A program made the translations under genes and the position numbers. A stretch of DNA of 64,000 nucleotides, taken from Heterodontus francisci. Its lineage: Eukaryota. A model generated the notes under the pieces. It ran no database searches, was not told the DNA's origin, and worked only from the letters and a program-made list of their open reading frames with translations. Location: positions 45,361,215 to 45,425,214 of the forward strand of contig NC_090402.1 in NCBI RefSeq assembly GCF_036365525.1. The letters are read 5' to 3'. This document shows positions 7,781 through 43,282 of the stretch, piece by piece; the first letter of the stretch is position 1, and the number at the start of each line of letters is the position of its first letter.

Positions 7781-8159
7781 TAGTATGTTAGTGCATTGAC
7801 TGAAGCAGCACAGAGCCAGAAGATCTCAGTTTTGATCCCAGCCCATGCTGGGTTAGTTGCTTTCAGCCAGGGAGGCAGTTGAGGTGCTACAACTGGGCTC
7901 AATGGTGCCTCACTGCCAAAGGTGCCCACATGAGCAATTAAGGTGGAGGTTAAGTATCCTATTGAAGATGCCACATTGAAATAGTTATCAGGAGACATAC
8001 AGAAGTAAATAAACAGAAAAACAAAAGGAAAATACTGCCGATGCTGGAAATCTGAAATTAAATTAGAAAATGCTGGAAGACATTCAGTGGGTCAGGCAGC
8101 ACCTGTGAAGAGATGACCCTTCATCAGAACATGCAGAAGTAGCCACTGATGAAGAGAAA

Positions 8160-10440
8160 GACTTGCATTTATTTAGCACCTTTCATGATCTCAACATTCC
8201 AAAGCATTTTACTTTTGAAGTGTAGTCACTGTTGCAATGTATGAAACACAGCAGCCAGTTTTTGCACAGCAAGCTCTCACAACAGCAATGTGATATTGAC
8301 CAGATAATCTGTTTTTTATCAGGTTGATTGAAGGATACATATTGGCCAGGACACTGGGGATAACTCTCCTGCAAAATAATGTCATGATCTTTTACATCTA
8401 TGAAGTAAAAAAGGAAATTAGAAAAGCAAACAGAGGACATGAAAACATATTGGCAGGTAAAATCAAGGAATCCCCAACGATGTTTTATCAGTATATTAAG
8501 AGCAAGAGGGTAACTAAGGAAAGGGTAGGGCCTATCAGAGATCTGCAAGGGAACTTATACCTGGATGCAGATGATGTGGGCAGGGTTCTTAATGAGTTTT
8601 CTGCCTCTGTCTTCACAAAGGAGAGGGATGATGCAGACATTGTAGTAAAAGAGGAGTGTGAAATATCAGATACGATTAGCATAATGAGAGAGGAAGTACT
8701 GGAGGGTCTGATATCCTAGAAAGTGGAAAAATCACCAGGGCCGGATGGATTGCATCCCAGGTTGTTAAAGGAAGCCAGGGAGAAAATAGCAGATACGCTA
8801 AGGATCATCTTCAAATCCTCACTGGATACGGGCAAGGTAGCAGAGGATTGGAATATAATTGTTTAAAAAGGGTGTGAGGGATAGGCCAAAGAATTATAGG
8901 CCGGTCAGTCTGATCTCGGTGGTGAGTAAATTATTAGAATCAAGTCTGAGGGATAGGATAAATTGCCACTTAAGGGATAGTCAGCATGGATTTGTTAAGG
9001 GAAGGTCATGTCTTACTAACTTGATTGAATTCTTTGAGGAAGTAACAAGGAGGACTGATGAGGGTAGTGCAGTGGATATGGTCTACATGGATTTTAGTAA
9101 GGCATTTGACAAGGTCCTGCATGGCACATTGGTCAGTAAAATGAAAGCCCATGGGATACAGGGGAATATGGCAGGTTGAATCCAAAATTGGCTCAGTGAC
9201 AGGAAGCAAAGGGTAGTAGTCGACGAACGTTTTTGTGAATGGAAAGCGGTTTCCAGTGGCATTCCACAGGGTTCAGTGCTGGGTCCCTTGCTGTTTGTGG
9301 TATATATTAATGATTTGGACTTAAATGTCGGAGGCAGGATTGGGAAATTTGCAGATGACACAAAAATTGGCCGTGTAGTTGATAGTGAAGAGAATAGTTG
9401 TAGACTCCAGAGTGATATCAATGGTTTGGTTGAGTGGGGGGAAAAGTGGCAAATGGAATTCAATCCGGACAAGTGTGAGGTAATGCACTTGGGGGAGGGC
9501 AAATAAAGTGAGGGAAAACACAATGTGTGGGAGGATATTGAGACGGGTAGAAGAAGTGAGATACCTTGGAGTGCATGTCCACAGGTCCCAAAAGGTGGCA
9601 GGGCAGGTAGATAAAGTTGTGAAGAAGGCTTATGGAATGCTTTCCTTTATTGGCCAAGGTATAGAATACAAAAGCAGGGATATGATGCTGGAACTGTATA
9701 AAACGCTGGTTCGGCCACAGTTGGAATATTACGTATAGTTCTGGTCATCACATTATAGGAACAACATAGTTGCTCTGGAGAGAGTGCAGAGGAGATTTAC
9801 AAGAATGTTACTAGGGCTTGACAGTTGCAGCTATGAGGAAAGATTGGATAGGCTAGAGTTGTTTTCCTTAGAACAGAGGAGGCTTAATTGAGGTGTACAA
9901 AATTATAAGGGGCCTAGATTGAGTAGACAGGAAGGACCTATTTCCCCTAACAGAGAGGTCAGTTACCAGGGGGCACAAATTTAAGGTGACTGGTAGAAGG
10001 ATTAGAGGGGACATGAGGAGAAACTTTTTCACCCAGAGGGTGGTGGGTGTCTGGAATTCACTGCCAGGAATGGTGGTGGAGGCAGTAACCCTCAATTCTT
10101 TTAAAAGGTACCTGGACATGCACCTCAAGTGCTGTAACCTGCAAGGCTATGGACCAGATGCTGAAAGGTGGAATTGGATTGGGCAGCTAGTTTTTTCAGC
10201 CAGTATGGACACAAAGGCCTGAATGGCCTCCTTCTGTGCTGTAATTTTTCTGTGGTCTACCCAAGAGGGCAGTCAGGGCTTTGGTTTAGAATACCATCTA
10301 AAAGGCAGCACTGCCTCAGTATTGCACTGGGATGTCAACCTTGATCTTAGTGCTCAGGTCCTGGAGTTGGACTTGGCTCCAAAACCATCAAACCCAGAGA
10401 TGAGAGTGTTACCCACTAAGCCACTAGCTGACACCTAGGA
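8160..10440 (-). mobile_element. DeuSINE split by a CR1 insertion (pieces 8160-8400 and 10257-10440)
   Basis: Reverse complement matches the DeuSINE copies at 28055 and 58335; tcta at both junctions. Confidence 0.7.
8401..10256 (+). mobile_element. 5'-truncated CR1 LINE (decayed RT)
   Basis: KSPGPDGLHP, NYRPVSL, QHGFVKGRSCLTNL, DFSKAFDKV, KFADDTK; stops and frameshifts. Confidence 0.92.
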
Positions 10441-12760: not shown

Positions 12761-13560
12761 TCACATTGGGACAAACCTGGGCACTGACACTATCAGGTCT
12801 ATGTCAAGGAGGGCCCACGTGTAAGGGGTTTGTGATTCATCAAAGGCATTATCTCTGATCTGCATCAGGTCCTGCAACCAGACCTGCAGCGATGGAGCAA
12901 ACTTCTGTGCAACTGTATCTTTCCCACGCCATTTGGTAACAGCACCAGAAGCTATAAGTGTGCCGTTCATTTCTGCATCACAGAAAGAACAGCTGTACTC
13001 TTTCAGCTTGGCTTTGCATAGGTACAGATTGACAGGGCCAACCAGCAGTGATTTGGCCAGCAGAGGCACTATTTTCTGCTAGGCACCATTTCCAAGTACA
13101 AAGCAGCATGCTGTTTGTGTACTACACCACTGGTGTCCTCTTCTTCATTAATAGGAAGGATTTCTGCTCACATAATGCAGAGACTGCAAGTAGAAAATTC
13201 AGCCAGTAACTGTTGATTTTCTGAACAGTATTTATCATGCAAAGATGTTGATGAAAATAGGTTGGCCCCTGAATCAGCGCCTGCTCGAAATATTGCTGTT
13301 GGCAGATCCACAGATGCTTGCACTCTCCAAGACAAAACGTACAACGAGACACATTCCAGTGGAAGATATCTAGTGAAGCACAGTTTGAGACTATTGAGAT
13401 AATGCTCCCAGTGCTGAGACTGCACCAGGGGTGACTTACAACATGAGTCAGATATGTTGGTAAAATGATCGTGGCATGTAGCATTCTCTGCAATATTACC
13501 ACTGAGACAGCCATATGGATACTTGGCAAAAATAATCAACAGCCAGTAAACAGACCTAAG
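12761..13560 (-). pseudogene. Endogenous viral element: paramyxovirus HN-like attachment glycoprotein, C-terminal part (N-terminal remnant at about 22057-22135)
   Basis: IIFAKYPYGCLSGNIAENATC...YLNSL resembles HPIV3 HN IIFLGYGGLEHPINENVIC...MVNSI; GAD at the GSEG/GAEG position; terminal WALLDI..PRFVPM; frameshifted; by-eye comparison only. Confidence 0.55.
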
Positions 13561-13562
13561 AA

Positions 13563-14127
13563 GACCATGGGATCCAGGGAAATGCAGCAAGGTGGATACA
13601 AAATTGGCTCAGTGGCAGGAAACAAAGGGTAATTGTTGACGGGCGGTTTAGTGACTGGAGGGCTGTTTCCAGTCGCGTTCCGCAGGGCTCAGTACTGGGT
13701 CCCCTGCTTTTTGTGGTATATATTGACAATTTTGGCCTAAATGTAGGGGGCATGATCAAGAACTTTGCAGACGACACAAAGCTTGGCCGTGTAGTAGATA
13801 GCGAGGAGGATAGCTGTCGGCTACAGGAAGATATTGATGGTCTGGTCAGCTGGGCAGAAAAGTGGCAAATGGAATTCAACCTGGAGAAGTGTGAGGTGAT
13901 GCATTGGGGAAGGTCAAACAAGGCAAAGGAATACACGATAAATGGGAAAATACTGAGAAGTGTAGAGGAAGTGAGGGACCTTGGAGTGAATGTCCACAGA
14001 TCCCTGAAGGTAGCAGGACAGGTTGATAGGTGGTTAAGAAGGCATATGGAATTCTTTCCTTTATTAGCCAAGGTATGGAATATAAGAGCAGGGAGGTTAT
14101 GCTGGAAATGTATAACTCATTGGTTAG
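13563..14127 (+). mobile_element. CR1 LINE internal fragment, 3'-truncated at the foamy LTR
   Basis: VPQGSVLGP, NFADDTK, WAEKWQMEFN; ends abruptly at gttag. Confidence 0.9.
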
Positions 14128-15160
14128 ATGTGGTCCATACTGATAACTATATTCTTAATTAGTTGATAGTGTTAGTGATTTAGACAGACTGACTTAAGAG
14201 GATGGTACAAGGTACCATCAAAGGACCATCACAGATGATTAATCACAAAAATGGAATGGTACTTGCAAAAACAGATGCCATGTAAACCCATTACAAACAT
14301 TTTGACCAGATAAAAGCTCACAACTTCAAGAGAAGGGAATTCTCAGCAAATAAATTAAGTGGGAATGGGAGCAAATGATATTACCATATATGGATAACAA
14401 AAGCAGGAAAAACACACACAGAAAGGTAACACCTACATTCCAAAAGATGAGATAATGGATTAGAAACAGTATAAACGTGAGAGTTTTGAATCGAAAAACC
14501 AGATGTATTGAATTCCTCATTAATGCTTCTCAATCTATGGTAGGAACGGCTGACTGCATGACAAGAGAATTCTGCTCTTAACTGAGAGTGTTTTGTCTTG
14601 TTAAGTAGGAGGCTTACTTGGGGAATTTAAGGTAATAGTTTACTTTGAATTTTGATGGATATTCTAAGATATTTTGCTGTAACATTGTCAAGGTTGAACT
14701 TTTGGATTCTATTTTAGAAATAAGAGTATGTTTTATATCTCTTAGTAATCTTTGATATTGTAGTATACTTAGCCACTTAAAGTGTATTGCATGTTCAATT
14801 CTTTAACAAGTATCAAAGTTAATAAATCGTCTCATGTAGCATTTTGTATACAACTACAAGAAGACCCTCTCTGTGTCTCCTTAAGTGGGGAGATACTTAT
14901 TGAAGAGAGTTTCCCAAACCCTTATAATTTCTGGGAAATGTATGACTTAGCTATAATTATTTTTTTTAAATAGCCTATCCGAAAGGTAGTAATATTCTCT
15001 GTTAATTTTCTTTCTTTGAGGGAAGACTAGTTCAGTTCTTCAGACCAAAACAAGTGTCTGTAGGAATCTATCTAATTTGAACTTAATTAAAGGAGATTCA
15101 TAGGGATGTACACTTGATTGGTTTAGTCCCTGTATGGGGTTAAAGTCGTAAATCATTTCA
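14123..15160 (+). repeat. Foamy 5' LTR (lacks first ~258 bp)
   Basis: Aligns to 21027-22056 at about 95% identity; ends ttca; TATAAA at about 14470, AATAAA at 14821. Confidence 0.95.
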
Positions 15161-15162
15161 GT

Positions 15163-15172
15163 TGGTGCCCAA
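15163..15172 (+). promoter_or_regulatory. Primer-binding site, tRNA-Lys1,2-like
   Basis: CA-gt-TGGTGCCCAA directly after the LTR; foamy consensus is TGGCGCCCAA. Confidence 0.8.
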
Positions 15173-15454
15173 AACATGTCTTCTTGTCAACAGAATCCAG
15201 TACATATCTATTTGTATTAACATTTATTTTAGATTTTTAAGTACAGAAGGATTGTTTTACTGCCAGTGGTACTAAGACCCAGATTTAAGTATCTAGAGAT
15301 GGCAAACTCTTGATCAAGGTTTGTGCATCTTAAATCAGAACTCCCTCATTCTACTTTTGAGGTTTGGAAATTTTGTTTAAAATTCACTTTAAATCCTAGT
15401 TGCGTATAGGTCCTGACACATTTTAACTCCTAGTTCAGGTTCCGTTCAGACATA

Positions 15455-16460
15455 ATGGCTAATATTGAAGGGATTGGCTTAATTTTCCCGTTGGGTGATC
15501 CATCAACTTGTTTCAGCAGATTGCAGAATCCCATTCCACTGCCTCAGGCAGATCAGGTAGTTGTCTTTGAGATAGATAATTGTGATGCTGATGGTTCAGT
15601 TAAAGCTCATGATACTATTGTGGTTGACCCCCAGGTGGAAGGGATAGCACATATTCAGTGGGATAATCAGACTGATACCCCAGACCCACAATATTCTTTA
15701 ATGATAAAGTGCACGCCTGCACAATTGGGTGGCCTAATGATTGGTGCATGACTGGGCGGGGGTATCCATGGTAGAATTGTAGGTCCTGGGTCTCCCTACC
15801 TGCGTGGTTGCCATGGGTTTCAGATCAGATGGCTTCCTCACAATGAGGTTCGTGATCAGAATTTGCGAGAGGATTATAGACAGCTACTGATACATCACTT
15901 TCAAATGAAACAGGCCTATGTCTCTGGCTTTTGCTTATGATGGTGCTGCAGGATTTCCTCTGTCTGTGGGACAGCCAGTGCAGTCTCAAATTACACCCCT
16001 AGGCAATGTGAATCTTAACTCTATATATGCCATGTGTGGCAAGCCTGGTGTAAGCAACCAAGATAAAACATGAAGGATTTTAAACAACCTTGATAGACTT
16101 GACACTTGCTGTCAAGGCTGGAGTGCTGCACATTTACGGCAGCTCCTGTCCATGATGCTGAGTTCTGTTCTAGTCCTCCCAATCAATAGTTGCAACAACT
16201 GGATTCAAATTTATGCCCACCTCCTGATCATAACTCAGGGAGGGCATGTTATGGGCTCAATCAAAGAAATCCTTCAAATGGTTTGGTAGCTGCCTATCGA
16301 TTAGGTAAGGACCTTACACATAGAAACTGGGAAATTGGTCACAGTTGTCTGGCTAACCAGTATCAGAATTCTGCACTTAGATTAGCCTGTGAAGGTGCAT
16401 TGTCTGCTTATCCTGATGACTTGTAGAGGTGGGATAATGTTGAACGCATTATCCGCTCGA
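15455..16460 (+). pseudogene. gag: Foamy gag (C-terminus deleted)
   Basis: ATG at 15455; SCNNWIQIYAHLLIITQG and GLVAAYRLGKDLTHRNWEI resemble PFV Gag CA (DCLTWDSAVATLFIRTHG; GVATAYTLGMMLSGQNYQL); stops and frameshifts. Confidence 0.85.
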
Positions 16461-16550
16461 ACCATACCTTAGAACACTTGCAGGCTGTTGATACAGTTGT
16501 ATCCCAGCTCACTGCTGTTGGATACCTGATCAACATTATAAAGAGTCAGT

Positions 16551-16912
16551 GGGTGGCACAGTGGCGCAGTGGTTAGCACCGTAGCCTCACAGCTCCAGCG
16601 ACCCGGGTTCAATTCTGGGTACTGCCTGTGTGGAGTTTGCAAGTTCTCCCTGTGTCTGCGTGGGTTTCCTCCGGGTGCTCCGGTTTCCTCCCACAGCCAA
16701 ATGACTTGCAGGTTGATAGGTTAATTGGCCATCAGAAATTGCCCCATCGTATAGGTAGGTGGTAGGGAAATATAGGGACAGGTGGGGATGTGGTAGGAAT
16801 ATGGGATTAGTGTAGGATGAGTATAAATGGGTGGTTGATGGTTGGCACAGACTCGGTGGGCCGAAGGGCCTGTTTCAGTGCTGTATCTCTAAACTAAACT
16901 AAAAAAACTAAA
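16551..16912 (+). mobile_element. HE1-type V-SINE inserted in foamy RT
   Basis: tRNA head, V-domain (tgtgtggagtttgca...gggtttcctccgggtgctccgg), CR1-type tail, (aaact)n end. Confidence 0.88.
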
Positions 16913-19203
16913 TTTGAGAGGAAGTAGATGTCTTAGGCCTTCGTATAACTGGGAATTAATTCAGTCCTATAAAGAGAAACTAGACACAATTCAATATCCC
17001 CGAACTTTGAAAAGTCTACAGGCAAGTTTAGGACTCCTGAACTTTGCTAGATCATTTACATCGACCTTTGCTGAGCTCTCAGCACCTCTGTACGCTAGAG
17101 TAGGTGAGACAGTAAGAGGCCCATTCATTTTTTCCCCAGATAATTACTTGAAATTTCAACAACTGTGTCGGGATGTACAGAGGCTATAGATTTGGAGCAA
17201 AGGGACTTGCAGGTCCCACTTATTCTTCATGTTAAAATATCTCCTGGAGTAGCAGTTGCAGTTTTTTACAATGAAAATCGAATTGTGCCAGTTCAGTTTC
17301 ATTCTTATAATTTTTCCAATGTTGAAAGACGGTACAACAAAAAGGAAAGAGTTATGACGATGATAGTTCAGTGCCTCATTAAAGCATGACCCCTTCAAAG
17401 GATACACCCCCTTACAATTTATACTGAAATACCAGACTTGAGATCAGTTTTGTGAATGGCCTCTGATGAGAGAAGAGCCACTCAAATCCGCTACGACAAA
17501 TGGGCCTCCTTTTTGAATGATCCTACACTTATTTTTAAATTTCTATCCTCAGACGTGGGCTTAGAACACCTCCCTGTTAGGGAAGATGATGATAACGAGG
17601 AGAGAGTTAAACGAGTATCTCTGAAACCAAGTTATTTACTGTGATGGGTCATCAATGATGATTAAAAAAGAGACATCCCAACAATCCTCAGCTGGGATGG
17701 GGATAGTAATATGTATCTTTTAGGATTCTTATTCTTTCTATCCAGAAAGATTGCTGTCCATGCCCCTTGGCCAATGGACAGCACAGTATGCTGAAGCTGC
17801 AACATTATGGTATGCTTTAGAAAAGGTAGACCCTGTTAAGCCCACATTAATTTGTACAGATAGTGACTATTACAAACGGGCTTACAACCAAGACCTTGTG
17901 TTCTGGGAGCAAACAGGCTTTAGAATCACAAAGGTAAACCCATAAAACACAAATCATTGTGGGAAGATATTCTCCATTTACAAAAGGAGAAACGTAATTG
18001 TCAGGTAATTCATGTACCCGGGAATACCACTGGTTCAGTACATTCAAAGGGCAACAGTCTTGCAGATGGACAGGCAAAACATTAAGTCTGCATGACGACC
18101 CCTCGAGAGGGGACTGCCATAGTTAATGTAATCACTAGGGCAGAACGAGCAGCTAATCAGGATGAGGAACTGATTCAGCTATTGGACCTGACGAAAGAGA
18201 ATCCAAAAGAATATCCGTCAAAGTACTTCTATTCAGAGACGCTGATTGGTATTCTACTGGTTAAGTTGCCCAAGGGTGTCCGGAAAGTACCCCCGAGTCA
18301 CAAACAAGAACAGCTTGTAAAAGAAGCTCACGAGGGTATAGATCAGCCACATAGTGGTACCCGAACAAGATTCTGCAAATTGACTCCTTTATATTTGGTG
18401 GCCAGGCATGCTTAAAGCCTGTAAAACATATGTGGCAAATTGTGAGCCATGTAATTTAACCAACAAATCATCATTTATTAAACCACCACTGTTGGCTCCT
18501 GTGAAGCCGAATAAATCAATGGAGAAATTTTTTGTTGATTTCTTTGGACCACTTCCCCCATTAATGGGGTATAAACATGTTCTCGTTAGTGTTGATGGCA
18601 GCACTTCTTTCTGCTGGCTGGTCCCCACAAAAACTGTTTCGGAAACTGCACTTGTCATTGCTATTACTAACATTATTACTGTAGCTGGTGTACCCAAAAT
18701 CCTACACCTTGATCAAAGCGGAGCCTTTGTTTCCAAGGTTTTCAAAGACTATTGTGTGCAAAGGAGGATTGGGTTAGAGCACACAGCACATCATGTTATC
18801 CGCAGTCAGCGGGACTGGTGGAACGTAAAAACCAGGAAGTAAAAAAGCTATTGACCAAACTGTGAGAATCATAGGGACTAAGTGGGCCGCCATCATTCTG
18901 GAGGTGCAGCTATCACTAAATAATGTGCCCACGTGTGCATCAGGGACAGTGATCCCTAGAACCCCGTGTTATTTAATGTATGGTGTTGAAATGCAGACAC
19001 CACTTACTCGTGGTTCTTTTATTGCCTCTGTGCTTTCTTACTACTTGACCTGACGGCAACAATTAAATTTGAAACAAGAAATAACAGATCAAATTCATAA
19101 AATTGATCAGAGGATCAGAGAGAAGAATAGACAAAAACAGGTAACTAACAAAGCTTGGCAAGCTGTAACCGGAGAATGGATTCAGGAGAAAAAGTTTGAA
19201 CAG

Positions 19204-19340
19204 AATAAAAGCAAAATACTGCAGATGCTGGAAATCTGAAATAAAAACAAGAAATGTTGTAAATACTCAGCAGGTCTGGCAGCATCTGTGGAGAGAGAAG
19301 CAGAGTTAACGTTTCTGGTCAGTGACCCTTCATTAGAACT
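19204..19340 (-). mobile_element. Penelope-like fragment with a degenerate hammerhead, inserted in foamy IN
   Basis: Same repeat occurs at 8015, 55268 and 57977; rc agttCTAATGA..GAAACGTTaact. Confidence 0.65.
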
Positions 19341-19463
19341 ATTCTGTTTATTCTGTTATTAATGAAAGAACTGTCAAAATATTTGCTAACCAGCCGAATG
19401 GCCAGCAATCTCTTAAAATTGTCTCTGTTGACAACCTGAAGAGGTGACCTGAAAGGTACAGGA

Positions 19464-20258
19464 ATGGAGGATCAGTACAAGGTGCAGTCGTACACTGTCT
19501 TTCAGGACCCTGCCTGTAGGATGGCATCGGAAACGACACTAATTGAACTGCAACCAACTGCGTCAATAACTGTTCCTCCCCCACGCATGACCTCGCAACA
19601 CCTCAAAGGTTGGTTTCACTGGGAACCACACCCGATGCAACGAGCGATAGTCAAGCCACAACAACAAAAGATGGAAAAACTGTGGGAAAGGAACAAAGTA
19701 CTGAAGACTCTCAGTAATGGAACTTGCTCTCACGTAAAGAAAGGAACTGGTAAATTCTCTGTTAAAAGGTCTTCCGGATGCTCTGACTGTGGTCTGGATA
19801 TTGGCACCTGGATGATAACACCCTCTGAGGATGTTACTTGCTGTGGTCACACTTTCCAACATATTAAATCCTCTAGATCTCGAAATTCCTATGCTCCTCG
19901 TGTTATTTATATGACTGTTAAACTTAGTAAGCTTAGTACAGTACCTAGCCAGTCACAGGGCATAGATTTGATTCTTACCTATACCAATTCTTCAGTTGAG
20001 CAAACTATTAAAAGGGCACAACACTTGCTGTCGCAGGTTAAATGGACTAATATTTGGCAAGTTCCAGATTGGCTACAGGCTATTGGTCAAGGGGTTGTAG
20101 AGTCAATGCCAGGGTTAACTTCTGCTGCTAAATCTGCCATTTAATGGTTTACTGATGCTGTCACAGGAGTGTTTGGATGCACTTTTAGTCTATTCTCATA
20201 TCTCGTTCCAGTGCTCACTGTAATTGAGATTGTTATCCTCATTCTAGTTCTAAAGTGA
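19464..20258 (+). pseudogene. env: Foamy env with large internal deletion (226-aa open ORF, then stop-interrupted membrane anchor)
   Basis: QGIDLILTYTNSSVEQTIKRAQ..PDWLQAI..GVFGCTFSLFSYLVPVL resembles PFV TM KGIKIEVTSSGESIKEQIERAK..PAWIQQL..GIFGTAFSLLGYLKPIL. Confidence 0.88.
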
Positions 20259-20759
20259 TTTTTCCTTTCTCTTCCTTTTCAAATTATGTTCAGTGCTGTT
20301 GTTTTTGCAGGGTTTTTCTTTTTCCTCTTTTGTTGCTATAAGTTTTTTCTAGCTCTGCAAATAGAATCTCAGACCAGCGCTGAGCAGCCTTATAGTCCAT
20401 TTCATCGAAGACATGTCTACCTCGCTTACTCAGACTTTTCTACCTCATCACATGATTTCATCGATTGATCATTGATGTTCAACATGTCAAGATACAGTCA
20501 TCTCATTAAGCATTTTGTGACCTCAGATCGCTGACACTTTGCATAGTATTATTATGAACTTTGTGATAAAATTAAAAGATTCATTTTTGAAAAATTTAGT
20601 TGATCCATGTAAGAACACGAACTATGATTGTTGTGGATGTAGTCTTCTGTATTATTGCACTGTTTTAAAAAATAAGTGGCAACACTCTATTGCATGTTTA
20701 AATTTTAGACATTACTTAGTTAAAACAACCTATCTTTGCTGTTCGCCTTTATACTGGTC

Positions 20760-20768
20760 AAGAGAGGG
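20760..20768 (+). promoter_or_regulatory. Foamy 3' polypurine tract
   Basis: AAGAGAGGG followed by TG; the PFV PPT is AGGAGAGGG. Confidence 0.85.
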
Positions 20769-22056
20769 TGTAATGAAACATAGATAAAATAGGCTTAATT
20801 AGGTAGAATTTAGATATAATTAATACATTAATCCTTTTAGAATTAAAGATTGAATAAAAGGTAAGTTTTCAAGACTCACTGAAATTCCCTTTTAAGGGCA
20901 GAGTTAAAAATCCATAAACATCCCTGTTACAATAGAATGTGAACCAGAAACACCTTTTAAGTTAAACAAAATCCATTCCATGGTCCATGTTACAATGGAA
21001 TTAGAAGATGAAACACATTGAGACACGTTAGATGTAGTCCGTACTGATAACTATAATCTTAATTCGTTGACAGTGTTAGTGATATAGACAGACTGACTTA
21101 AGAGGATGGACAAGGTACCATCACAGATGATCAATCACAAAATGGAATGGTACTTGCAAAAACAGATGCCATGTAAACCCAATTACAAACATTTTGACCA
21201 GATAAAAGCTCATAACTTCAAGAGAAGGGAATTCTCAGCAAATAAATTAAGTGGGAATGGGAGCTAATGATATTAACATATATGGATAATAAAAGCGGGA
21301 AAAACACACACAGAAAGGTAACACTTACATTCCAAAAGATGAGATAATGGATTAGAAACAGTATAAACGTGAGAGTTTTGAATCAAAAACCAAAAGTATT
21401 GAATTCCTCATTAATGCTTCTCAACCTATGGTAAGAACGGCTGACTACATGACAAGAGAATTCTGCTCCTAACCGAGAGTGTTTTGTCTTGTTAAGTAGG
21501 AGGCTTACTTGGGGAATTTAAGGTAACAGTTTACTTTGAATTTTGATGGATATTCTAAGATATTTTGCTGTAACATTGTCAAGGTTGTACTTTTGGATTC
21601 TATTTTAGAAATAAGATTAGGTTTCACATCTCTTAATAATCTTTGATATTGTAGTATACTTAGCCACTTAAAGTGTATTGCATGTTCAATTCTTTAATAA
21701 ATATATAAAAGTTAATAAATCGTCTCATGTAGCATTTTGTATACAACTACAAGACCCCCCCCCCTCTCTGTGTCTCCTTAAGTGGGGAGATACTTATTGA
21801 AGAGAGTTTCCCAGACCCTTATAATATCTGGGAAATTTATGACTTAGCTATAATTATTATAAAAATAGCCTATCTGAAAGGTAGTAATATTCTCTGTTAG
21901 TTTTCTTTCTTTGAGGGAACACTAGTTCAGTTCTTCAGATTCAAACAAGTGTCTGTAGGAATCTGTCTAATTTAAATTTCATTAAAGGAGACTCATAGGG
22001 ATGTACACTTGATTTGATGTAGTCCCTATATGGGGTCAGAGTCATAAATCACTTCA
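20769..22056 (+). repeat. Foamy 3' LTR (1288 bp)
   Basis: TG after the PPT to ...acttCA; TATAAA at 21362, GGTAAG donor-like site at 21430, AATAAA at 21714. Confidence 0.93.
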
Positions 22057-22134
22057 GGATCTCAATACCCAGTATTTCAATTGAGACCTGTCCATAGGTT
22101 GTCCAGCAAACAAAAACACATAAATTGTTAATCC

Positions 22135-22796: not shown

Positions 22797-25700
22797 TTAT
22801 ATTCGTTCATGGGATGTTGGCATTGTTGGCAAGGCCAACACTTCTTGCCAATCCCTAATTGCCCTTGAAAGCTGGTGGTGAGCTGCCTTCTTGAACCGCT
22901 GCAGTCCACGTGGTGTAGGTACACCCACAGTGCTGTTAGGGAGGGAGTTCCAGGATTTTGACCTAGCAACAATGAAGGAGCGGTGACATAGTTCCAAGTC
23001 AGGACAGTGTGCAGCTTGGAGGGGAACTTGCAGGTGGTGGTGTTCTCATGCTTCTGCTGCCCTTGCCCTTATAGGTGGTAGAGGTCATGGGTTTGGAAGG
23101 TGTTGCCAAAGGAGCCTTGGCGAGTTACTGCAGTGCATCTTGTAGATGGTAGTGCTGCCACTGTGCACCGGTGGTGGAGAGAGTGAATGTTTAAGGTGGT
23201 GGATGGGGTGCCGATCAAGCAGGTGCCTTTGTCCTGAATAGTGTCAAGCTTCCTCAGTGCTGCACTCATTCAGGGAAGTGCAGAGTATTCTATTACACTC
23301 TTGACTTTTGGATGGTAGATGGTGGACAGGCTTTGGGGAGTCAGGAGGTAGGCAGTGGCCGAGTGATATTATCACTGGACTAGTAACCCAGAGACCCAGG
23401 GTATTTCTCTGGGGACATGGGTTCGAATCCCACCACAGCAGAAGGTGGAATTTGAATTGAATTAATAAATCTGGAATTAAAAGCTAGTCTAATGATGGCC
23501 ATGAAACCATTGTCGATTATTGTAAAAATCCATCTGGTTCACGAATGTCCTTTAGGGAAGGAAATCTGCTGTCCTTACCTGGTCTGACCTACATGTGACT
23601 CCAGACCCACAGCAATGTGGTTAACTCTTACATGCCATCTGAAATGGCCTAGCAAGCCACTCAGTTGTACCTAACCGCTGCGAAGTTAATAAAAAGGAAT
23701 GAAACCGGACGGACCACCTGGCATTGACCTAGGCACCGGAAATGACAACAGCAAACCCAGCCCTGTCGACCCTGCAAAGTCCTCCTTACTAACATCTGGG
23801 GGCTTGTGCCAAAGTTGGGAGAGCTGTCCCATAGACAAGTCAAGCAACAGCCTGACATAGTCATACTCATGGAATCATACCTGACAGACAATGTCCCGGA
23901 CACTGCAATCACTATCCCTGGGTATGTCCTGTCCCACCGGCAGGATAGACCCAGCAGAGGTGGTGGCACAGTGGGATACAGTAGGGAGGGAGTTGCCCTG
24001 GGAGTCCTCAACATCAACTCCGATCCCATGAAGTATCATGGCATCAGGTCAAACATGGGCAAGGTAACCTCCTACTGATTACCACCTACCGCCCTCCCTC
24101 AGCTGATGACTCATTACTCCACCATGTTGAACACCACTTGGAGGAAGCACTGAGGGTAGCAAGGGCACAAAATGTACTCTGGGTGGGGGACTTCAATGTC
24201 TATTCACCAAGAGTGGCTCGGTAGCACCACTACTGACTGAGCTGGCCGAGTCCTAAAGGACATAGCTACGAGACTGGGTCTGCGGTAGGTGGTGGGGGAA
24301 CCAACACGAGGGAAAAACATACTTGACCTCGTCCTCACCAATCTGCCTGCTGCAGATGCTTCTGTCCATGACTGTATTGGTAGGAGTGACCACCACACAG
24401 TCCTTGTGGAGACGAAGTCCCGCCTTCACATTGAGGATACCATCCATCATGTTGTGTGGCACTATCACCGTGCTAAATGGGATAGATTTCGAACAGATCT
24501 AGCAATGCAAAACTGGGCATCCATGAGGCGCTGTGGGCCATCAGCAGCAGCAGAATTGTACTCAACCACAATCTGTAACCTCATGGCCCAGCATTTCCCC
24601 CACTCTACCATTACCATCAAGACAGGAGACCAACCCTGGTTCAATGAAGAGTGCAGGAGGGCATGCCAGGAGCAGCACCAGGCATACCTCAAAATGAGGT
24701 GTCAACCTGGTGATACCACAACACAGGACGATGTGCGTGCCAAACTGCGTAAGCAGCATGCGATGGACAGAGCTAAGCGATCCCATAACCAACGGATCAG
24801 ATCTATGCTCTGCAGTCCTGCCACATCCAGTCGTGAATGGTGGTGGACAATTAAACAACTAACTGGAGGAGGTGGCTCCACAAATATCCCCATCCTCAAT
24901 GATGGGGGAGCCCAGCACATCAGTGCGAAAGATAAGGCTGAAGCATTTGCAACAATCTTCAGCCAGAAGTGCCGAGTTGATGATCCATCTCGGCTTCCTC
25001 CTGAAGTCCCCAGCATAACAAATGTCAGACTTCAGCCAATTCGATTCACTCCGCGTGATATCAAGAAACAACTGAAGGCACTGGGCACTGCAAAAGCTAT
25101 GGACCCTGACAATATTCCGGCAATACTACTGAAGACCTGTGCTCCAGAACTTGCCGCGCCCCAAGCCAAGCTGTTCCAGTACAGCTACAACACTGGCATT
25201 TACTCTGCAATGTGGAAAATTGCCCAGGTATGTCCTGTACACAAAAAGCAGGACAAATCCAACCTGGCCAATTACGGCCCCATCAGTCTACTCTCTATCA
25301 TCAGTAAAGTGATGGAAGATGTCATCAACAGTGCCATCAAGCAGCACTTGCTTAGCAATAACCTGCTCAGTGACGCTCAGTTTGGGTTTCGCCAGGGCCA
25401 CTCAGCTCCTGACCTCATTATAGCCTTGGTTCAAACATGGACAAAAGGGCTGAACTCAAGAGGTGAGGTGAGAGTGACTGCCCTTGACATCAAGGCAGCA
25501 TTTGACCGAGTATGGCATCAAGGATCCCTAGCAAAACTGGAGTCAATGGGAATCAGGGGGAAAACCCTCCGCTGGCTGGACTCATACCTAGCGCAAAGGA
25601 AGATGGTTGTGGTTGTTGGAGGTCAATCATCTGAGCTCCAGGACATCACTGCAGGATTTCCTCAGGGTAGTGACCTAGGCCCATCTTCAGCTGCTTCATC

Positions 25701-26873
25701 AATGACCTTCCTTCAATCATAAGGTCAGAAGTGGGGATGTTCACGGATGATTGCACAATGTTCAGCACCATTCGTGACTCCTCAGATACTGAAGCAGTCC
25801 GTGTAGAAATGCAGCAAGACCTGGACAATATCCAGGCTTGGGCTGATAAATGGCAAGTAACATTCGCGCCACACAAGTGCCAGGCAATGACCATATCCAA
25901 CAAGAGAGAATCTAACCATCTCCCCTTGACATTCAACAGCATTACCATCACTGAATCCCCCACTATCAACATCCTCGGGGTTACCATTGACCAGAAACTG
26001 AACTGGAGTAGCCATATAAATACCGCGGCTACAAGAGCAGGTCAAAGGCTAGGAATCCTGAGGCAAGTAACTCACCTCCTGACTCCCCAAAGCCTGTCCA
26101 CCATCTACAAGGCACAAGTCAGGAGTGTGATGGAATACTCTCCACTTGCCTGGATGGGTGCAGCTCCAACAACACTCAAGAAGCTCGACACCATCCAGGA
26201 CAAAGCAGTCTGCTTGATTGGCACTCCATCTACAAACATTCACTCCCTCCACCACCGACACACAGTGGCAGCAGTGTGTACCATCTACAAGATGCACTGC
26301 AGCAATGCACCAAGGCTCCTTAGGCAGCACCTTCCAAACCCGCGACCTCCACCAACTAGAAGGACAAGGGCAGCAAATACATGGGAACACCACCACCTGC
26401 AAGTTCCCCTCCAAGTCACACACCATCCTGACTTAGAACTGTATCGCCGTTCCTTCACTGTCGCTGGGTCAAAATCCTGGAACTCCCTTCCTAACAGCAC
26501 TGTGGGTGTACCTACCCCACATGGATTGCAGCAGTTCAAGAAGGCAGCTCACCACCACTTTCTCAAGGGCAATTAGGGATGGGCAATAAATGCTGGCCTG
26601 GCCAGCATCGCCCACATACCATGAATGAATAAAAAAAAAGGTGAGTTACTTGCTGGAGAAATCCCAGCCTCTGGCCTGCTCTTGTAGCCACAGTATTTAT
26701 GTGGCTGGTCCAGTTCAGTCTCTGATCAATGGTAATTCTCCAGGATGTTGATGATCGGAGATTTGGCAGCGATAATGTCATTGAACATGAAGGAGAGATG
26801 ATTAGATTCTCTCTTGTTGGAGATGGTCGTTGTCTGGCACTTGTGTGGTGAGAATGCCAATTGTCACTATCAG
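22797..26873 (-). mobile_element. Older antisense copy of the tRNA-headed LINE family (pieces 22797-23349 and 26639-26873)
   Basis: Reverse complement matches 25840-26638; contiguous across the insertion site. Confidence 0.85.
23350..26638 (+). mobile_element. Full-length single-ORF LINE (CR1/Jockey group, EN+RT) with a tRNA-derived 5' head
   Basis: A box at about 23356 and B box GGTTCGAATCC at 23420-23430; EN (PDIVILMESYL, GDFN, SDH) and RT (QFGFRQG, LDIKAAFD, FTDD); poly-A tail; TSD aggt; a few stops and frameshifts. Confidence 0.9.
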
Positions 26874-28763: not shown

Positions 28764-31700
28764 CGGCCGAAACTGAAGAGCACAGCTGTTGATACTTTAA
28801 TCTCCGATCCTGCTGTCTTCACCGCCCAGAGTGTCTGCAGCCACGGCGTGCGGTAAGTCCATTGAGGTGAAGAAGGAGCAGCGGGACCCTAGAGAAGTCT
28901 TGAGAAAAGGTGCCCTGATCACCCAAAAAATCCACGAACGGCCCCCCGGCCGCAACTTCAAAGCGCCCGTGGGAGATGGCTCGGAGAGCATCTGCAGCGC
29001 ACTGTCGGAAATGCTGCATGCCTTTATTTAAACCACTGCAAAAAAAAAACCCTTAGCGAATGTAATCACCTCTGTAAGTCTGCCAACAGATGCTTCACCT
29101 CCCGAAGGACGTGGATGAGCTTTCCGGACGTCGATGGTGGGCACTGAGGAAATGGCTTATTACCTGCACCAGCTTTCCCCCCCCTCCCCCTTCCCCCCCC
29201 CCTTTACCCCCCCTTTCCCCCATTCCACCCCCCCCGTCCCCTTCCCTGCTCCACCCTCTCAGCTCACCCCCTCACAACCCCGTCCCAGCCCGCCCCCCCC
29301 TCGCACCATCTTCCCCCCGCACCCCCTTCCCCTGCACCCCCCCCACCCCCTTACATCCCCCTTCTCAGCTCCCCCTCGCACCCCCCTCCCTCTACCCCTC
29401 CCCCTTGCATCCCCTCCTCCCACCGGCACCATCCTACACTTGTGTAGGGGCCCCAACAACCCCACTGCCTTGTGGGCGTCTCGGGAGAGACCAAGGCTAA
29501 GGGGGTAAACCCTAACAGATAATCCGGAGCGGAACCCTGTAGGCGGTCATGTGTCACCTTTGGCATGTTTCCGGCAGTTCCTGCAGCCATACTGGTGCCA
29601 AACGTCATGCCCTGCACTCCTTTGGACCCCACCAGAAAGGCCGAGAGGGGGGTTTTGACGACTGGGCAACTCTCAACCTCCATAAATTTGCCCAGGCATG
29701 CGCCATGGAGAGGTCACTCCATAGTTGCCTCACAGCGACTGACACAACACGGAAGGCAGCAGTTACGGGTTATAAGTCCAGATAAATTGGCGTAGAAACT
29801 GGGCGCCACGGGTTGCCTTTGTCGGTGGGAGAGGTCATTGCACCTCACTGGACAGCTACCGCCCGCCTCAAACCGGGCAGCCCCCGGTCAATAAGGTTCT
29901 GTCCCGCCACAGTCTATCTGCTTCAATGGGTGCTTGGAGCTCAGGGTCATTGCCCGAAAGGTGGACTGATACACCGCACCAAACAACACGAAAAAAGGAA
30001 AGAAGGTACCAGCCCTTCGCTTTGCATGCTGGAATGTCAGAACTATGTGTCCTGGCCTGTCGGAAGACCTTACACAAATCAACGATTCTCGGAAGACTGC
30101 CATCATTAGCAATGAGCTCAGTAGACTCAATGCAGACATTGCAGCACTTCAGGAGACTCGCCTCCCCGCGAGTGGCTCTCTAGCAGAGCAAGACTACACC
30201 TTCTTCTGGCAGGGCAGGGATCCTGAAGAACCAAGACAGCATGGAGTGGGCTTCGCCATCAGAAACTCCTTGCTCAGCATGATAGAGCCACCCTCAAATG
30301 GCTCGGAACGCATACTGTCCAACCGACTGCTCACCACCTCTGGTCCAGTACACCTACTCAGCATCTATGCTCCAACACTCTGCTCCCCACCTGAAGCTAA
30401 AGACCAGTTCTACGAGCAACTCCATAACATCATTAGCAGCATCCCCAACACCGAACACCTATTCCTGCTGGGGGACTTTAATGCCAGGGTTGGGGCCGAC
30501 CATGACTCATGGCCCTCCTGCCTTGGGCGCTATGGCGTTGGAAGGATGAATGAGAATGGGCAGAGACTGCTTGAGTTGTGTACCTATCATAACCTCTGCA
30601 TCACCAACTCGTTCTTTCACATTAAACCCTGTGACCAGGTTTCATGGAGGCACCCAAGATCGCGTCGTTGGCACCAGCTAGACCTCATTGTCACAAGGCG
30701 AGCCTCCTTAAACAGTGTTCAAATCACACGCAGCTTCCACAGTGCGGACTGCGACACCGACCACTCCCTGGTGTGCAGCAAGGTTAGACTCAGACCAAAG
30801 AAGTTGCATCATTCCAAGCAGAAGGGCCACCCGCACATCAACACGAGCAGAATTTCTCACCCACAGCTGTTACAAAAATTTCTAAATTCACTTGTAACAG
30901 CCCTTCAAAACATTCCCACAGGGGATGCTGAGACCAAGTGGGCCCACATCAGAGACGCCATCTATGAGTCAGCTTTGACCACCTACGGCAAAAGTGCGAA
31001 GAGAAATGCAGACTGGTTTCAATCTCATAATGAAGAGCTGGAACCTGTCATAGCCGCTAAGCGCATTGCACTGTTGAACTACAAGAAAGCCCCCAGCGAT
31101 TTAACATCCGCAGCACTTAAAGCAGCCAGAAGCACTGCACAAAGAACAGCCAGGCGCTGCGCAAACGACTACTGGCAACACCTATGCAGTCATATTCAGC
31201 TGGCCTCAGACACCGGAAACATCAGAGGAATGTATGATGGCATGAAGAGAGCTCTTGGGCCAACCATCAAGAAGATCGCCCCCCTCAAATCTAAATCAGG
31301 GGTCATAATCACTGACCAACACAAACAAATGGACCGCTGGGTTGAGCACTACCTAGAACTGTACTCCAGGGAGAATGCTGTCACTGAGACTGCCCTCAAT
31401 GCAGCCCAGCCTCGACCAGTCATGGATGAGCTGGACATACAGCCAACCAAATCGGAACTCAGTGATGCCATTGATTCTCTAGCCAGCGGAAAAGCCCTTG
31501 GGAAGGACAGCATTACCCCTGAAATAATCAAGAGTGCCAAGCCTGCTATACTCTCAGCACTACAAGAACTGCTATGCCTGTGCTGGGACGAGGGAGCAGT
31601 ACCCCAGGACATGCGCGATGCCAATATCATCACCCCATATAAAAACAAAGGTGACTGCGGTGACTGCAACAACTACCGTGGAATCTCCCTGCTCAGCATA

Positions 31701-33243
31701 GTGGGGAAAGTCTTTGCTCGAGTCGCTCTGAACAGGCTCCAGAAGCTGGCCGAGCGCGTCTACCCTGAGGCACAGTGTGGCTTTTGTGCAGAGAGATCGA
31801 CCGTTGACATGCTGTTCTCCCTTCGTCAGATACAGGAGAAATGCCGTGAACAACAGATGCCCCTCTACATTGCTTTCATTGATCTCACCAAAGCCTTTGA
31901 CCTCGTCAGTAGACGTGGTCTCTTCAGACTACTAGAAAAGATTGGATGCCCACCAAAGCTACTAAGTATCATCACCTCATTCCATGACAATATGAAAGGC
32001 ACAATTCAACATGGTGGCTCCTCATCAGAGCCCTTTCCTATCCTGAGTGGTGTGAAACAGGACTGTGTTCTCGCACCCACACTTTTTGGGATTTTCTTCT
32101 CCCTGCTGCTTTCACATGCGTTCAAGTCCTCTGAAGAAGGAATTTTCCTCCACACAAGATCAGGGGGCAGGTTGTTCAACCTTGCCCGTCTAAGAGCGAA
32201 TTCCAAAGTACGGAAAGTCCTCATCAGGGAACTCCTCTTTGTTGACGATGCTGCTTTAACATCTCACACTGAAGAGTGCCTGCAGAGTCTCATCGACAGG
32301 TTTGCGGCTGCCTGCAATGAATTTGGCCTAAACATCAGCCTCAAGAAAACGAACATCATGGGGCAGGACATCAGAAATACTCCATCCATCAATATTGGCG
32401 ACCACGCTCTGGAAGTGGTTCAAGAGTTCACCTACCTAGGCTCAACTATCACCAGTAACCTGTCTCTAGATGCAGAAATCAACAAGCGCATGGGTAAGGC
32501 TTCCACTGCTATGTCCAGACTGGCGAAGAGAGTGTGGGAAAATGGCGCACTGACACGGAACACAAAGGTCCGAGTGTATCAGGCCTGTGTCCTCAGTACC
32601 TTGCTCGATGGCAGCGAGGCCTGGACAACGTATGCCAGCCAAGAGCGACGTCTCAATTCATTCCATCTTCGCTGCCTCTGGAGAATACTTGGCATCAGGT
32701 GGCAGGGCCGTCTCTCCAACACAGAAGTCCTCGAAGCGGCTAACATCCCCAGCTTGTACACACTACTGAGTCAGTGGCACTTGAGATGGCTTGGCCATGT
32801 GAGCCGCATGGAAGATGGCTGGATCCCCAAGGACACATTGTACAGCGAGCTCGCCACTGGTATCAGACCCACCGGCCGTCCATGTCTCCGCTATAAAGAC
32901 ATCTGCCAACGCGACATGAAATCCTGTGACATTGATCACAAGTCGTGGGAGTCAGTTGCCAGCGTTCGCCAGAGCTGGCGGGCAGCCATAAAGGCGGGGC
33001 TGAATTGTGGCGAGTCGAAGAGACTTAGTAGTTGGCAGGAAAAAAGACAGAGGCGCAAGGGGAGAGCCAACTGTGCAACAGCACCGACAAACAAATTTCT
33101 CTGCAGCACCTGTGGAAGAGCCTGTCACTCTAGAATTGGCCTTTATAGCCACTCCAGGCGCTGCTTCACAAACCACTGAACACCTCCAGGCGCGTATCCA
33201 TTGTCTCTCGAGATAAGGAGGCCCAAAAGAAAAGAAGAAAAGA
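28764..33243 (+). mobile_element. Full-length RTE-clade LINE
   Basis: 11-bp TSD attgatggatc (28753-28763 / 33244-33254); ~1.2-kb 5' region with a C-rich tract; (aaga)-type tail. Confidence 0.93.
30045..33179 (+). CDS. RTE ORF: APE endonuclease + reverse transcriptase + C2H2 finger (1044 aa, frame open from about 29970)
   Basis: WNVRTM, ALQETR, GDFNA, TDH, YRGISLL, FIDLTKAFD, GVKQDCVLAP, LLFVDD, CSTC..H..C; uninterrupted. Confidence 0.93.
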   Translation: MCPGLSEDLTQINDSRKTAIISNELSRLNADIAALQETRLPASGSLAEQDYTFFWQGRDPEEPRQHGVGFAIRNSLLSMIEPPSNGSERILSNRLLTTSGPVHLLSIYAPTLCSPPEAKDQFYEQLHNIISSIPNTEHLFLLGDFNARVGADHDSWPSCLGRYGVGRMNENGQRLLELCTYHNLCITNSFFHIKPCDQVSWRHPRSRRWHQLDLIVTRRASLNSVQITRSFHSADCDTDHSLVCSKVRLRPKKLHHSKQKGHPHINTSRISHPQLLQKFLNSLVTALQNIPTGDAETKWAHIRDAIYESALTTYGKSAKRNADWFQSHNEELEPVIAAKRIALLNYKKAPSDLTSAALKAARSTAQRTARRCANDYWQHLCSHIQLASDTGNIRGMYDGMKRALGPTIKKIAPLKSKSGVIITDQHKQMDRWVEHYLELYSRENAVTETALNAAQPRPVMDELDIQPTKSELSDAIDSLASGKALGKDSITPEIIKSAKPAILSALQELLCLCWDEGAVPQDMRDANIITPYKNKGDCGDCNNYRGISLLSIVGKVFARVALNRLQKLAERVYPEAQCGFCAERSTVDMLFSLRQIQEKCREQQMPLYIAFIDLTKAFDLVSRRGLFRLLEKIGCPPKLLSIITSFHDNMKGTIQHGGSSSEPFPILSGVKQDCVLAPTLFGIFFSLLLSHAFKSSEEGIFLHTRSGGRLFNLARLRANSKVRKVLIRELLFVDDAALTSHTEECLQSLIDRFAAACNEFGLNISLKKTNIMGQDIRNTPSINIGDHALEVVQEFTYLGSTITSNLSLDAEINKRMGKASTAMSRLAKRVWENGALTRNTKVRVYQACVLSTLLDGSEAWTTYASQERRLNSFHLRCLWRILGIRWQGRLSNTEVLEAANIPSLYTLLSQWHLRWLGHVSRMEDGWIPKDTLYSELATGIRPTGRPCLRYKDICQRDMKSCDIDHKSWESVASVRQSWRAAIKAGLNCGESKRLSSWQEKRQRRKGRANCATAPTNKFLCSTCGRACHSRIGLYSHSRRCFTNH

Positions 33244-36104: not shown

Positions 36105-37274
36105 GGGCTGAATTTTACAGCCCCCACCCCCCGACATCGGAGGTCGTGGTGGGGGAAGGGGGGCTGTAACATGCCGCCGGCAGAGGCCCACCACGGGCCA
36201 CGATGCCAAGAAGGCGCAACCCGATTTTGCCAGTAGTGACGAGGCCTTGTGGCAGCAACCCCCACCCCCCGCTCCACCTCCCGCCGCTCGACGATGGGAG
36301 CAAAATTTACAGATTTAAATAAATGCATTAATTATACTCTTGCCTCCGCCTTCAGTCCTGCTATGATATTTTATTTTATTTTATTTATTTAGAGATACAG
36401 CACTGAACAGGCCCTTCGGCCCACCGAGTCTGGGCCGACCATCAACCACCCATTTATACTAATCCTACATTAATCCCATATTCCTAACACATCCCCCCCT
36501 TCCCTCAATTTCCCTACCACCTACCTATACTAGGGGCAATTTTATAATGGCCAATTTACCTATCAACCTGCAAGTCTTTGGCGGTGGGAGGAAACCGGAG
36601 CACCCGGAGAAAACCCACGCGGTCACAGGGAGAACTTGCAAACTCCGCACAGGCAGTACCCAGAATTGAACCCGGGTCACTGGAGCTGTGAGGCTGCGGT
36701 GCTGACCACTGTGCCACTGTGCTGCCCTATTGATGCCAGTGGCAGGCACTCCCGCACCTTTGGGTCCCCGTCCGGGGATCCGAGTGGAACACTGGTGGGG
36801 AGGGGGAGCAGGTAGGTTTTTCAGTGTGGGGGAGCAGGTAGCGGGGTCAAACTAATCTCTTTTGTTTAGGGGATGATGGGAAGGGTTAGAGTTTAAAGTT
36901 TATATACTTGGGGGGTGGGGGGGGGGGAAGGTCAGGTGGACAAGGAAAGTGTTTTGGGCAGAAGAGGGCAAGAAATTAATTGTATGTTTATTGGGGGGTA
37001 GGAGAGGGGTAAATTAAATGTTTTTAAAAATTTTGTAACATCTCTCTTTAAAAATTTAAATTAAATGGAAGGACTCGAAGCCCTTTATAAATGGCATCAG
37101 CGCATGCACAATGGCTGCTGACACCGTTGCCAGGGATAGACATCATTTTGGGGGGCAGTCCACCCCGACCATTTAAATGAGCCTCAGTGTTTAATACTGC
37201 GGTGGCTCCATGATGTACAGTTCGCACGGGTGTTTACATCGGCGGCAGAAATGTTAACTGCAGCCCGTAAAATC
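36105..37274 (+). mobile_element. Harbinger-type MITE inside CR1 ORF2
   Basis: Left TIR gggctgaattttac, eroded right TIR cgtaaaatc; related to 11310-12028. Confidence 0.7.
36371..36727 (-). mobile_element. HE1-type V-SINE inside the MITE
   Basis: Reverse complement highly similar to 16551-16912. Confidence 0.88.
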
Positions 37275-42660: not shown

Positions 42661-43282
42661 AATCTTGACATCTATGCAATAAAACACCTTTCATGGCCTT
42701 AGGATGTCCCAAAGCACTTTACAGCCAATCAGTTAAAATACAATGTATCTGCTAGGAATACATAACATAATCTACTGAAAAGTCACCTCTAAACAATTTG
42801 CCAACACCTTTGAGAGATCAGAATAAGATCTTCATATTTTATCAAATTTTTTCTTCCTTGTAACACCACAAACTATAACTGTGTGGACAGTTCCTATTGT
42901 TCTCACATGATCAGAATGGGAATCAATTGCAGTAGCCTTTCTGTGAAGACGTCCTTCCTGACATTACTCCTGAACAATTCATGCCAAATGAATTGTGCCA
43001 TTTTCACATAAAAATATTTAAAAGAAGTAGATTGCAAGCCTATCTGAGCCTGGGGGGCTTTTTCCACAGTTCAGGGTAAATGCATCAATTTCTCTGAGAG
43101 AAAAGGTCCTACATTCCAATTCTCTTCATTTAAACTAGTTTGATTTTCCGTAATCTCATTTGTTCTTGAGCTCTCCATCATTTTTGTTTTCTCAATACAA
43201 TACCTCTGTTTTAATTCAGAATGATTAGTTTGCTTTCTCTCTCTCTTTGGGTTTCTGGTGCTGCTTTGATGTCATATTACCT

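Follow-up and report, generated by a model that had tools for sequence, protein, structure and literature searches.

A dead endogenous foamy provirus in the shark Heterodontus francisci, likely branching outside the tetrapod foamy viruses or at their base

In a stretch of 64,000 nucleotides of the Heterodontus francisci genome (assembly GCF_036365525.1, contig NC_090402.1, positions 45,361,215 to 45,425,214 of the forward strand; hereafter the window), an original prediction made from the letters alone had placed an endogenous foamy-like provirus with both long terminal repeats (LTRs). This locus raises two questions. First, is the element really a foamy virus, and where among the foamy viruses does it belong? 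Second, how did it come to its present state, and is it new? The first part of the first question can be answered more strongly than had been claimed: positions 14123–22056 of the window are occupied by an endogenous foamy provirus, now dead, whose Pol falls in the foamy clade, whose Env is homologous to mammalian foamy Env and whose cis-signals are of the foamy type. Its order is LTR-gag-pol-env-(accessory)-LTR, with a gap of ~130 nt from pol end to env start that holds no additional open reading frame (ORF), and stops and frameshifts are present in all of its genes. The element is real but far from whole, with two large internal deletions and two repeat insertions in pol that the prediction had not mentioned. 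The coding remnants and the repeats within them are listed here.

15455–16450, plus strand: gag remnant starting at ATG 15455, with the N-terminal region and the central domain, stops and frameshifts; the C-terminal part is gone
16451–16549, plus strand: reverse transcriptase (RT) segment just after the YxDD motif, at foamy Pol profile positions 316–349 (E 0.0075 when the entire window is scanned) and feline foamy Pol 322–346
16551–16912, plus strand: short interspersed element (SINE) inserted in RT after integration, with an inverted copy at 36370–36722 (91% identical) and Pol homology on both sides
16913–19456, plus strand: pol remnant with RT thumb, connection, RNase H and integrase (N-terminal extension, HHCC, core, SH3) and several stops and frameshifts
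19204–19339, plus strand: second host repeat, in the integrase C-terminal region, with copies at 55273–55405 (85%), 57976–58074 and 8020–8113; the profile match resumes afterwards
19587–20258, plus strand: env remnant, in which the beginning of the leader peptide, with WxxW at 19611, continues in frame into the C-terminal portion of the transmembrane subunit (TM), with an internal stop at 20142 and a presumed start codon
20259–20759, plus strand: region of ~500 nt between env and the 3′ polypurine tract (PPT), at the accessory-gene position of foamy viruses, with a possible decayed frame into U3

The foamy identity is carried first by Pol. The remnant at 16913–19456 is collinear with feline foamy Pol 367–1098 and with positions 368–1129 of a profile built from 17 foamy Pol proteins, which adds the integrase SH3 end at 19337–19456; across pol there are 7 stops in 778 sampled codons and ~7 frame changes. 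When Pol was scored piecewise, seven of the eight pieces clearly favoured the 12 foamy references over the 12 non-foamy ones, and one tied. The integrase core matches eight PDB sequences at E ≤ 0.01, the best being prototype foamy virus (PFV) integrase at E 1e-34; four of the eight are named PFV integrase and the other four, named integrase only, are presumably PFV as well. A search of 1.84 billion representatives gave 7395 matches (E ≤ 0.001), with feline foamy virus Pol ranked first (40%, E 1.5e-24) and a spadefoot-toad protein second; in the matches named (20 of the 150 listed for integrase), amphibian proteins follow feline foamy Pol, and no relative above 40% identity occurs among the best 150 of the 7395. 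A word-indexed search of the integrase core against longer proteins gave 0 of 184 candidates at E ≤ 1e-8, which is weak evidence, as the exhaustive search did find relatives. The integrase N-terminal extension named in the original prediction does align with that of feline foamy virus Pol. The RT segment at 16451–16549, collinear with the Pol piece beyond the SINE, scores as RT, with 13.6 bits for foamy and 13.3 for non-foamy references and hence no separation.

Because other copies of the repeats at 16551–16912 and 19204–19339 exist in the window and Pol homology resumes after them, both are plain insertions into pol. We take the first to be an HE1-type V-SINE of sharks and rays, for which direct checks gave nothing. 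HE1 is listed for sharks and rays in PMC3747384, without a sequence.

Two Pol trees, resting on the part from RT thumb to integrase (the RT catalytic core is absent from the element), were built from mammalian and amphibian foamy rows, one teleost row and other retroviral and gypsy rows, and contained no chimaera, coelacanth, reptile or bird sequences and none of the cartilaginous fish endogenous foamy virus (CFEFV) considered below. The first comprised 24 rows and 820 columns, with protein P0007 excluded; the element fell in the foamy group at 99/97, and a heavily trimmed gypsy row sat, misplaced, beside that group. Because of this misplacement the tree was rebuilt without the gypsy row (25 rows, 812 columns; six rows of the first tree dropped and seven added), and the element then stood in the foamy clade at 100/100. 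Within that clade it belongs to a branch excluding the sole teleost row (94/96), but not to the group formed by the mammal, toad and newt rows (93/91). Pol identity is 33–38% to mammalian foamy viruses, 27–35% to the amphibian rows, 20–26% to other retroviral and gypsy rows, and 20% to the teleost row; in the final run of the second tree the first three ranges are 33–37%, 27–34% and 20–25%. On these alignments the foamy membership of Pol is firm, and a basal position, either outside the tetrapod foamy viruses or at their base, is likely. The Pol phylogeny that the original prediction had proposed as a check thus settles the clade but is not decisive on the exact place within it.

One row of the trees deserves a remark of its own. 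Protein P0113, foamy-like and 1687 residues long, carries Gag, protease, RT, RNase H and integrase in one open frame, is 34% identical to feline foamy Pol and branches near the element without firm support. One would not expect a fusion of this kind in foamy viruses, whose Pol comes from spliced RNA. In the approximately unbiased (AU) test, pairing of the element with P0113 was neither shown nor rejected, the branch having 74/53.

The second line of evidence is Env. The TM part of the env remnant matches positions 813–969 of 982 of Foamy_virus_ENV (PF03408) at E 1.5e-18, with 66 bits against a cut-off of 27, and residues 818–975 of the 988-aa envelope glycoprotein 8ozh (E 1.7e-13), which we take to be the PFV envelope. 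The foamy Env TM motifs that had been predicted are confirmed. The surface subunit (SU) and most of the TM ectodomain are missing. WxxW is described as the Gag-interacting motif of Env (PMC5210030).

It might be argued that the element is a gypsy-type LTR retrotransposon, or a member of another retrovirus class, in which foamy-like motifs arose by chance: several of the 20 named integrase matches are gypsy-like arachnid proteins, and foamy viruses are not alone in having an N-terminal extension of integrase. Against this stand the starred tree support for the foamy clade, the retroviral connection and RNase H layout, and a Foamy_virus_ENV score above twice its cut-off. The Env match, both trees and the piecewise Pol scores refute such an identity, to which we assign practically no probability.

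A closer alternative is that the element belongs with the foamy-like endogenous retroviruses (FLERVs) of ray-finned-fish type, as reported for ERV-Spuma.0-Sca of the catshark Scyliorhinus canicula, which groups with cichlid and killifish FLERVs and is reported without a Gag domain match (PMC10699275). A cartilaginous-fish precedent of that type therefore exists, and a Lys-type primer-binding site (PBS) and a GGGTG border, both seen here, are common to the canonical and fish-type groups. However, the AU test rejects a clade of the element with the single teleost row (p 0.023), so that this grouping is already disfavoured, and identity to that row is 20% versus 33–37% to mammalian foamy Pol. Teleost FLERVs are reported to lack detectable Env homology to foamy Env (PMC5210030), and to carry one or more extra ORFs between pol and env (PMC5210030, PMC5512871); in the present element, Env is homologous to mammalian foamy Env and env follows pol after ~130 nt. 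By the features tested it is an endogenous foamy virus of canonical rather than teleost type, and membership in the ray-finned-fish group is highly improbable.

With mammalian foamy viruses (feline, equine, bovine, simian/prototype) the element shares a collinear Pol, a homologous Env TM, a WxxW motif close to where Env begins, a Lys PBS, the GGGTG border, a long LTR and a candidate donor-like site upstream of the poly(A) signal. It is, however, much more diverged from them than they are from each other, and it differs in having all genes broken, ~500 nt between env and LTR, no Tas or Bet homology there and no internal promoter found in 19300–20760. The distance from its TATA box to the poly(A) signal, ~350 nt, exceeds that in PFV, where the signal is at +168 from the RNA start (PMC3694450). 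The salamander element NviFLERV-1 has foamy gag, pol and env and an accessory region of 492 nt (PMC5512871), close to the ~500 nt here, but uses an Asn PBS, unlike the Lys type of the present element. The newt and toad rows of our trees form branches separate from the element, at the amphibian identities given above.

The cis-signals and the boundaries of the provirus are as follows.

13560–14122, plus strand: flanking RT fragment of a long interspersed nuclear element (LINE), presumably CR1-type (RVT_1, E 7.7e-14), ending where the 5′ LTR remnant starts
14123–15160, plus strand: 5′ LTR remnant of 1038 bp, with the first ~258 bp of U3 gone and a CA end
14470–14475 (5′ LTR) and 21362–21367 (3′ LTR), plus strand: candidate TATA box, named from sequence, with a putative function
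15163–15180, plus strand: PBS of tRNA-Lys type, second half decayed, starting 2 nt after the CA of the 5′ LTR
20760–20768, plus strand: 3′ PPT AAGAGAGGG, directly before the LTR TG, making GGG|TG
20769–22056, plus strand: complete 3′ LTR of 1288 bp, TG..CA, with TATA at 21362, GGTAAG at 21430 and AATAAA at 21696 and 21714

Self-comparison of the window gave a long direct repeat, 14123–15161 against 21027–22057, with 92% identity over 1047 columns and no third copy. Two LTR copies, as predicted, are thus present, but the length of 1.29 kb holds for the 3′ copy alone; a 5′ LTR of that length had to be rejected, the 5′ copy being a remnant that ends at 15160 and adjoins a truncated LINE. The window contains no second copy of the initial ~258 bp of the 3′ LTR. 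At 1288 bp the 3′ LTR falls within the range of 950–1700 nt quoted as usual for foamy LTRs (PMC6955096). The LINE flank is 80% identical to a LINE copy at 9145–9701, with similarity ending at the LTR junction, where an overlap of 3–5 nt was judged from this one paralogue. Because the LTR remnant adjoins a LINE fragment broken off at the junction, the left end of the provirus was deleted after integration, and with it the left side of the 4-bp target-site duplication (TSD) expected of a foamy virus.

The PBS and the PPT both bear out what had been predicted. The first 10 nt of the PBS equal the published Lys PBS of the stork endogenous foamy virus (EFV), which likewise begins 2 nt after the LTR (PMC6955096), and the later bases diverge. 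The PPT AAGAGAGGG occurs only once in 64 kb and is followed directly by the LTR TG; a GGGTG border of PPT and LTR is described as common to all foamy viruses and the foamy-like elements of fish (PMC5210030). TATA box, GGTAAG and AATAAA stand in the same order as in PFV, in which the major splice donor lies in R, upstream of the poly(A) signal (PMC3694450). The predicted donor-like GGTAAG was confirmed between TATA and AATAAA in the 3′ LTR, but the 5′ copy is off by one base, and the hexamer arose by chance in 6.6% of 5000 shuffles of the 347-nt stretch. As an R-region splice donor it is weakly evidenced and suggestive only.

How much of the virus is gone, and how? The internal region is 5608 nt, or 5111 nt without the repeat insertions, versus ~8.9 kb in the stork EFV (PMC6955096). 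A first deletion is placed near 16450, to within ~40 nt: since the frame upstream of this point weakly matches the Gag central domain and that downstream is post-YxDD RT, one deletion took the gag end, the border between gag and pol, the protease and the RT catalytic core (fingers and palm), and the RT segment remains in frame with the Gag central domain. For a second, WxxW at 19611 is followed within ~50 codons by sequence matching residues 818–975, and thus ~750 codons, including SU, were removed from env, with the junction in 19690–19780. Two large internal deletions, one of the Gag C-terminus, protease and RT core and the other of Env SU, are therefore what the alignments indicate, and this copy is incapable of replication or of making functional RT or Env.

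The gag remnant itself has no PDB match and no usable Atlas match, and its single-sequence fold was predicted at a mean confidence (pLDDT) of 34. The foamy-specific Gag motifs of the original prediction come out weaker than described: a central-domain match exists (Gag_FV_central, E 0.0048) but is weak, and the N-terminal part, without a Pfam match, is assigned by position only. Foamy Gag also has GR boxes where other retroviruses have Cys-His motifs, but the C-terminal part of Gag is deleted here. A "YPDD" near 16410 was tried as the RT motif, since one BLAST alignment places it so; as it falls within the stretch matched to the Gag central domain, before the RT segment that the profile supports, it was taken as Gag.

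Between env and the PPT, no significant Pfam match and no Atlas match was obtained. One frame is poor in stops, with 11 in 250 codons versus 20.5 expected for 20521–21270 (P 0.027) and 4 in 167 codons for 20260–20760 (P 0.065), the two tests overlapping. A decayed accessory frame between env and U3 is suggested, and only suggested, by these counts. Decay may conceal both an internal promoter and accessory genes, as is reported for the chevrotain EFV.

We propose that, some tens of millions of years ago, a deep-branching virus of Spumaretrovirinae type entered the germ line of a vertebrate, fish-like and probably a shark, by infection and integrated at this site. By analogy with foamy biology, this ancestor would have primed reverse transcription with tRNA-Lys, made Pol from spliced RNA and used a splice donor in R to restrain 5′ polyadenylation, and the WxxW leader peptide of its Env would have bound capsids. 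Neutral decay would then have brought stops and frameshifts into every gene and two repeat insertions into pol, the 5′ end of the 5′ LTR would have been lost together with flanking LINE DNA, and, as the simplest reading, both internal deletions would also have followed integration. The two LTRs differ by 57 substitutions in 1022 aligned columns (5.6%; Kimura two-parameter (K2P) distance 0.058) and 9 indels. With an assumed rate of 0.5e-9 per site per year, as used for the catshark (PMC10699275), this corresponds to 58 Myr, and with an assumed 2.2e-10, as used in PMC4422223, simple arithmetic gives ~130 Myr.

Several observations weigh against this account. Without a TSD, the LTRs could stem from different proviruses joined by recombination, in which case the date would not hold. 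The branch that excludes the element from the tetrapod group is not starred in either tree (81/71 in the first, and as given above in the second), and a position inside the newt branch, as sister to mammals and toad, passes the AU test without rejection (p 0.14). Teleosts are represented by one row on a very long branch, which is presumed to be a FLERV from its 27% match to feline foamy Pol. The Gag_FV_central match reaches 16.9 bits, under the Pfam cut-off of 30. An internal promoter of the form TATAAAA does not occur in 19300–20760, and the integrase region has 7 purine runs, none of them a copy of the 3′ PPT; an internal PPT of foamy viruses has been described (PMC5294762). Weighing all this, germ-line infection by a deep-branching foamy virus, followed by neutral decay, is still the reading in which we place considerable confidence.

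An alternative interpretation of the deletions is that both pre-date integration, the provirus being a non-autonomous foamy genome packaged by a helper, like a natural foamy vector. The parts kept (5′ leader, 3′ half of pol, PPT and LTRs) coincide with mapped foamy packaging signals, with the cis-acting sequence CAS I in the 5′ untranslated region and CAS II and the Pol-encapsidation sequences (PES) in the 3′ end of pol (PMC3705302), while the parts lost (gag end, protease, RT core and Env SU) can be supplied in trans; both deletion junctions read in frame, and trans complementation has been raised as a possibility for fish FLERVs (PMC5512871). However, the window shows a single copy, and the locus is prone to deletion, as the definite loss of 5′ LTR and LINE flank after integration demonstrates. 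Two in-frame junctions would be met by chance 1 in 9 times, and later frameshifts blur even that; moreover, randomly deleted proviruses often retain part of pol. Deletion before integration is thus unlikely in our judgement, and it is slightly less likely still that such a helper-dependent, doubly deleted genome was the form in which a deep-branching foamy lineage of sharks spread through the germ line. If so, this genome would be a natural counterpart of engineered foamy vectors, with enzymes and receptor-binding domain lost, and the split CAS I/CAS II packaging signal would already have been present at the base of the jawed-vertebrate foamy viruses. The element would gain weight if other copies carry the same two junctions, or if it proves distinct from published lineages.

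Is the lineage new? The suggestion of an undescribed shark foamy lineage is not borne out and has probably been pre-empted. Wang, Chen and Cui are said to have described CFEFV in 2023 (J Virol), which by the title roots to the vertebrate foamy viruses, and their study reportedly covered sharks and rays from about 11 genomes. Compared by title alone, the position stated for CFEFV is the position found here, and in all likelihood the element belongs to CFEFV or is closely related to it. FLERVs have also been reported from Callorhinchus milii (CmiFLERV; PMC5512871), reportedly with pol alone detected; these and ERV-Spuma.0-Sca, compared by description only, are likewise foamy-like elements of cartilaginous fish. 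Among the papers listed in the literature search, none reported on foamy elements in more recently sequenced sharks, and none found by shark genus names contained the word "foamy". Novelty is probably confined to a new copy or host, and no new category is opened, foamy viruses of cartilaginous fish having been published already. Nevertheless, the dating of retroviruses is calibrated mainly on foamy viruses, and few elements of canonical type are on record from cartilaginous fish, so that a copy with a whole LTR, PBS, PPT, Env leader, TM and accessory region contributes data on ancestral foamy hallmarks, together with a minimum age that would be tens of millions of years.

The surroundings of the provirus are rich in LINEs. 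No host gene was recognized among window ORFs of at least 130 codons, Rfam gave no match in the window, and of 10 window ORFs none had an identical sequence in the protein collection. LINE ORF pieces of 477 and 300 codons lie at 24289–26576 (plus strand), and the arms 22797–23349 and 26074–26634 form an inverted copy of the 3′ end of these pieces (83–88% complementary). An uninterrupted LINE ORF of 1069 codons with endonuclease and RT domains, presumably RTE-type, at 29970–33179 (plus strand) suggests a young retrotransposon. A DNA transposon of Harbinger/PIF type, ~7.7 kb, lies at 47007–54673 within a GA-rich microsatellite; its terminal inverted repeats start GGGCCGGATTTT, TGA flanks it on both sides, and it holds a decayed DDE_Tnp_4 transposase on the minus strand (~53200–54060, E 2e-20). 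Nested in it at 50366–50473 (plus strand) is an integrase zinc-finger fragment of another LTR element (Integrase_H2C2, E 7e-10). A second decayed Harbinger-like transposase, with no Pfam match at E ≤ 0.01, was recognized by eye in the translations of 55400–58000 (plus strand), flanked by two copies of the short repeat that interrupts the foamy integrase. Finally, a perfect 50-nt inverted repeat pair, 463 nt apart, at 42927–43489 is possibly a young miniature transposon.

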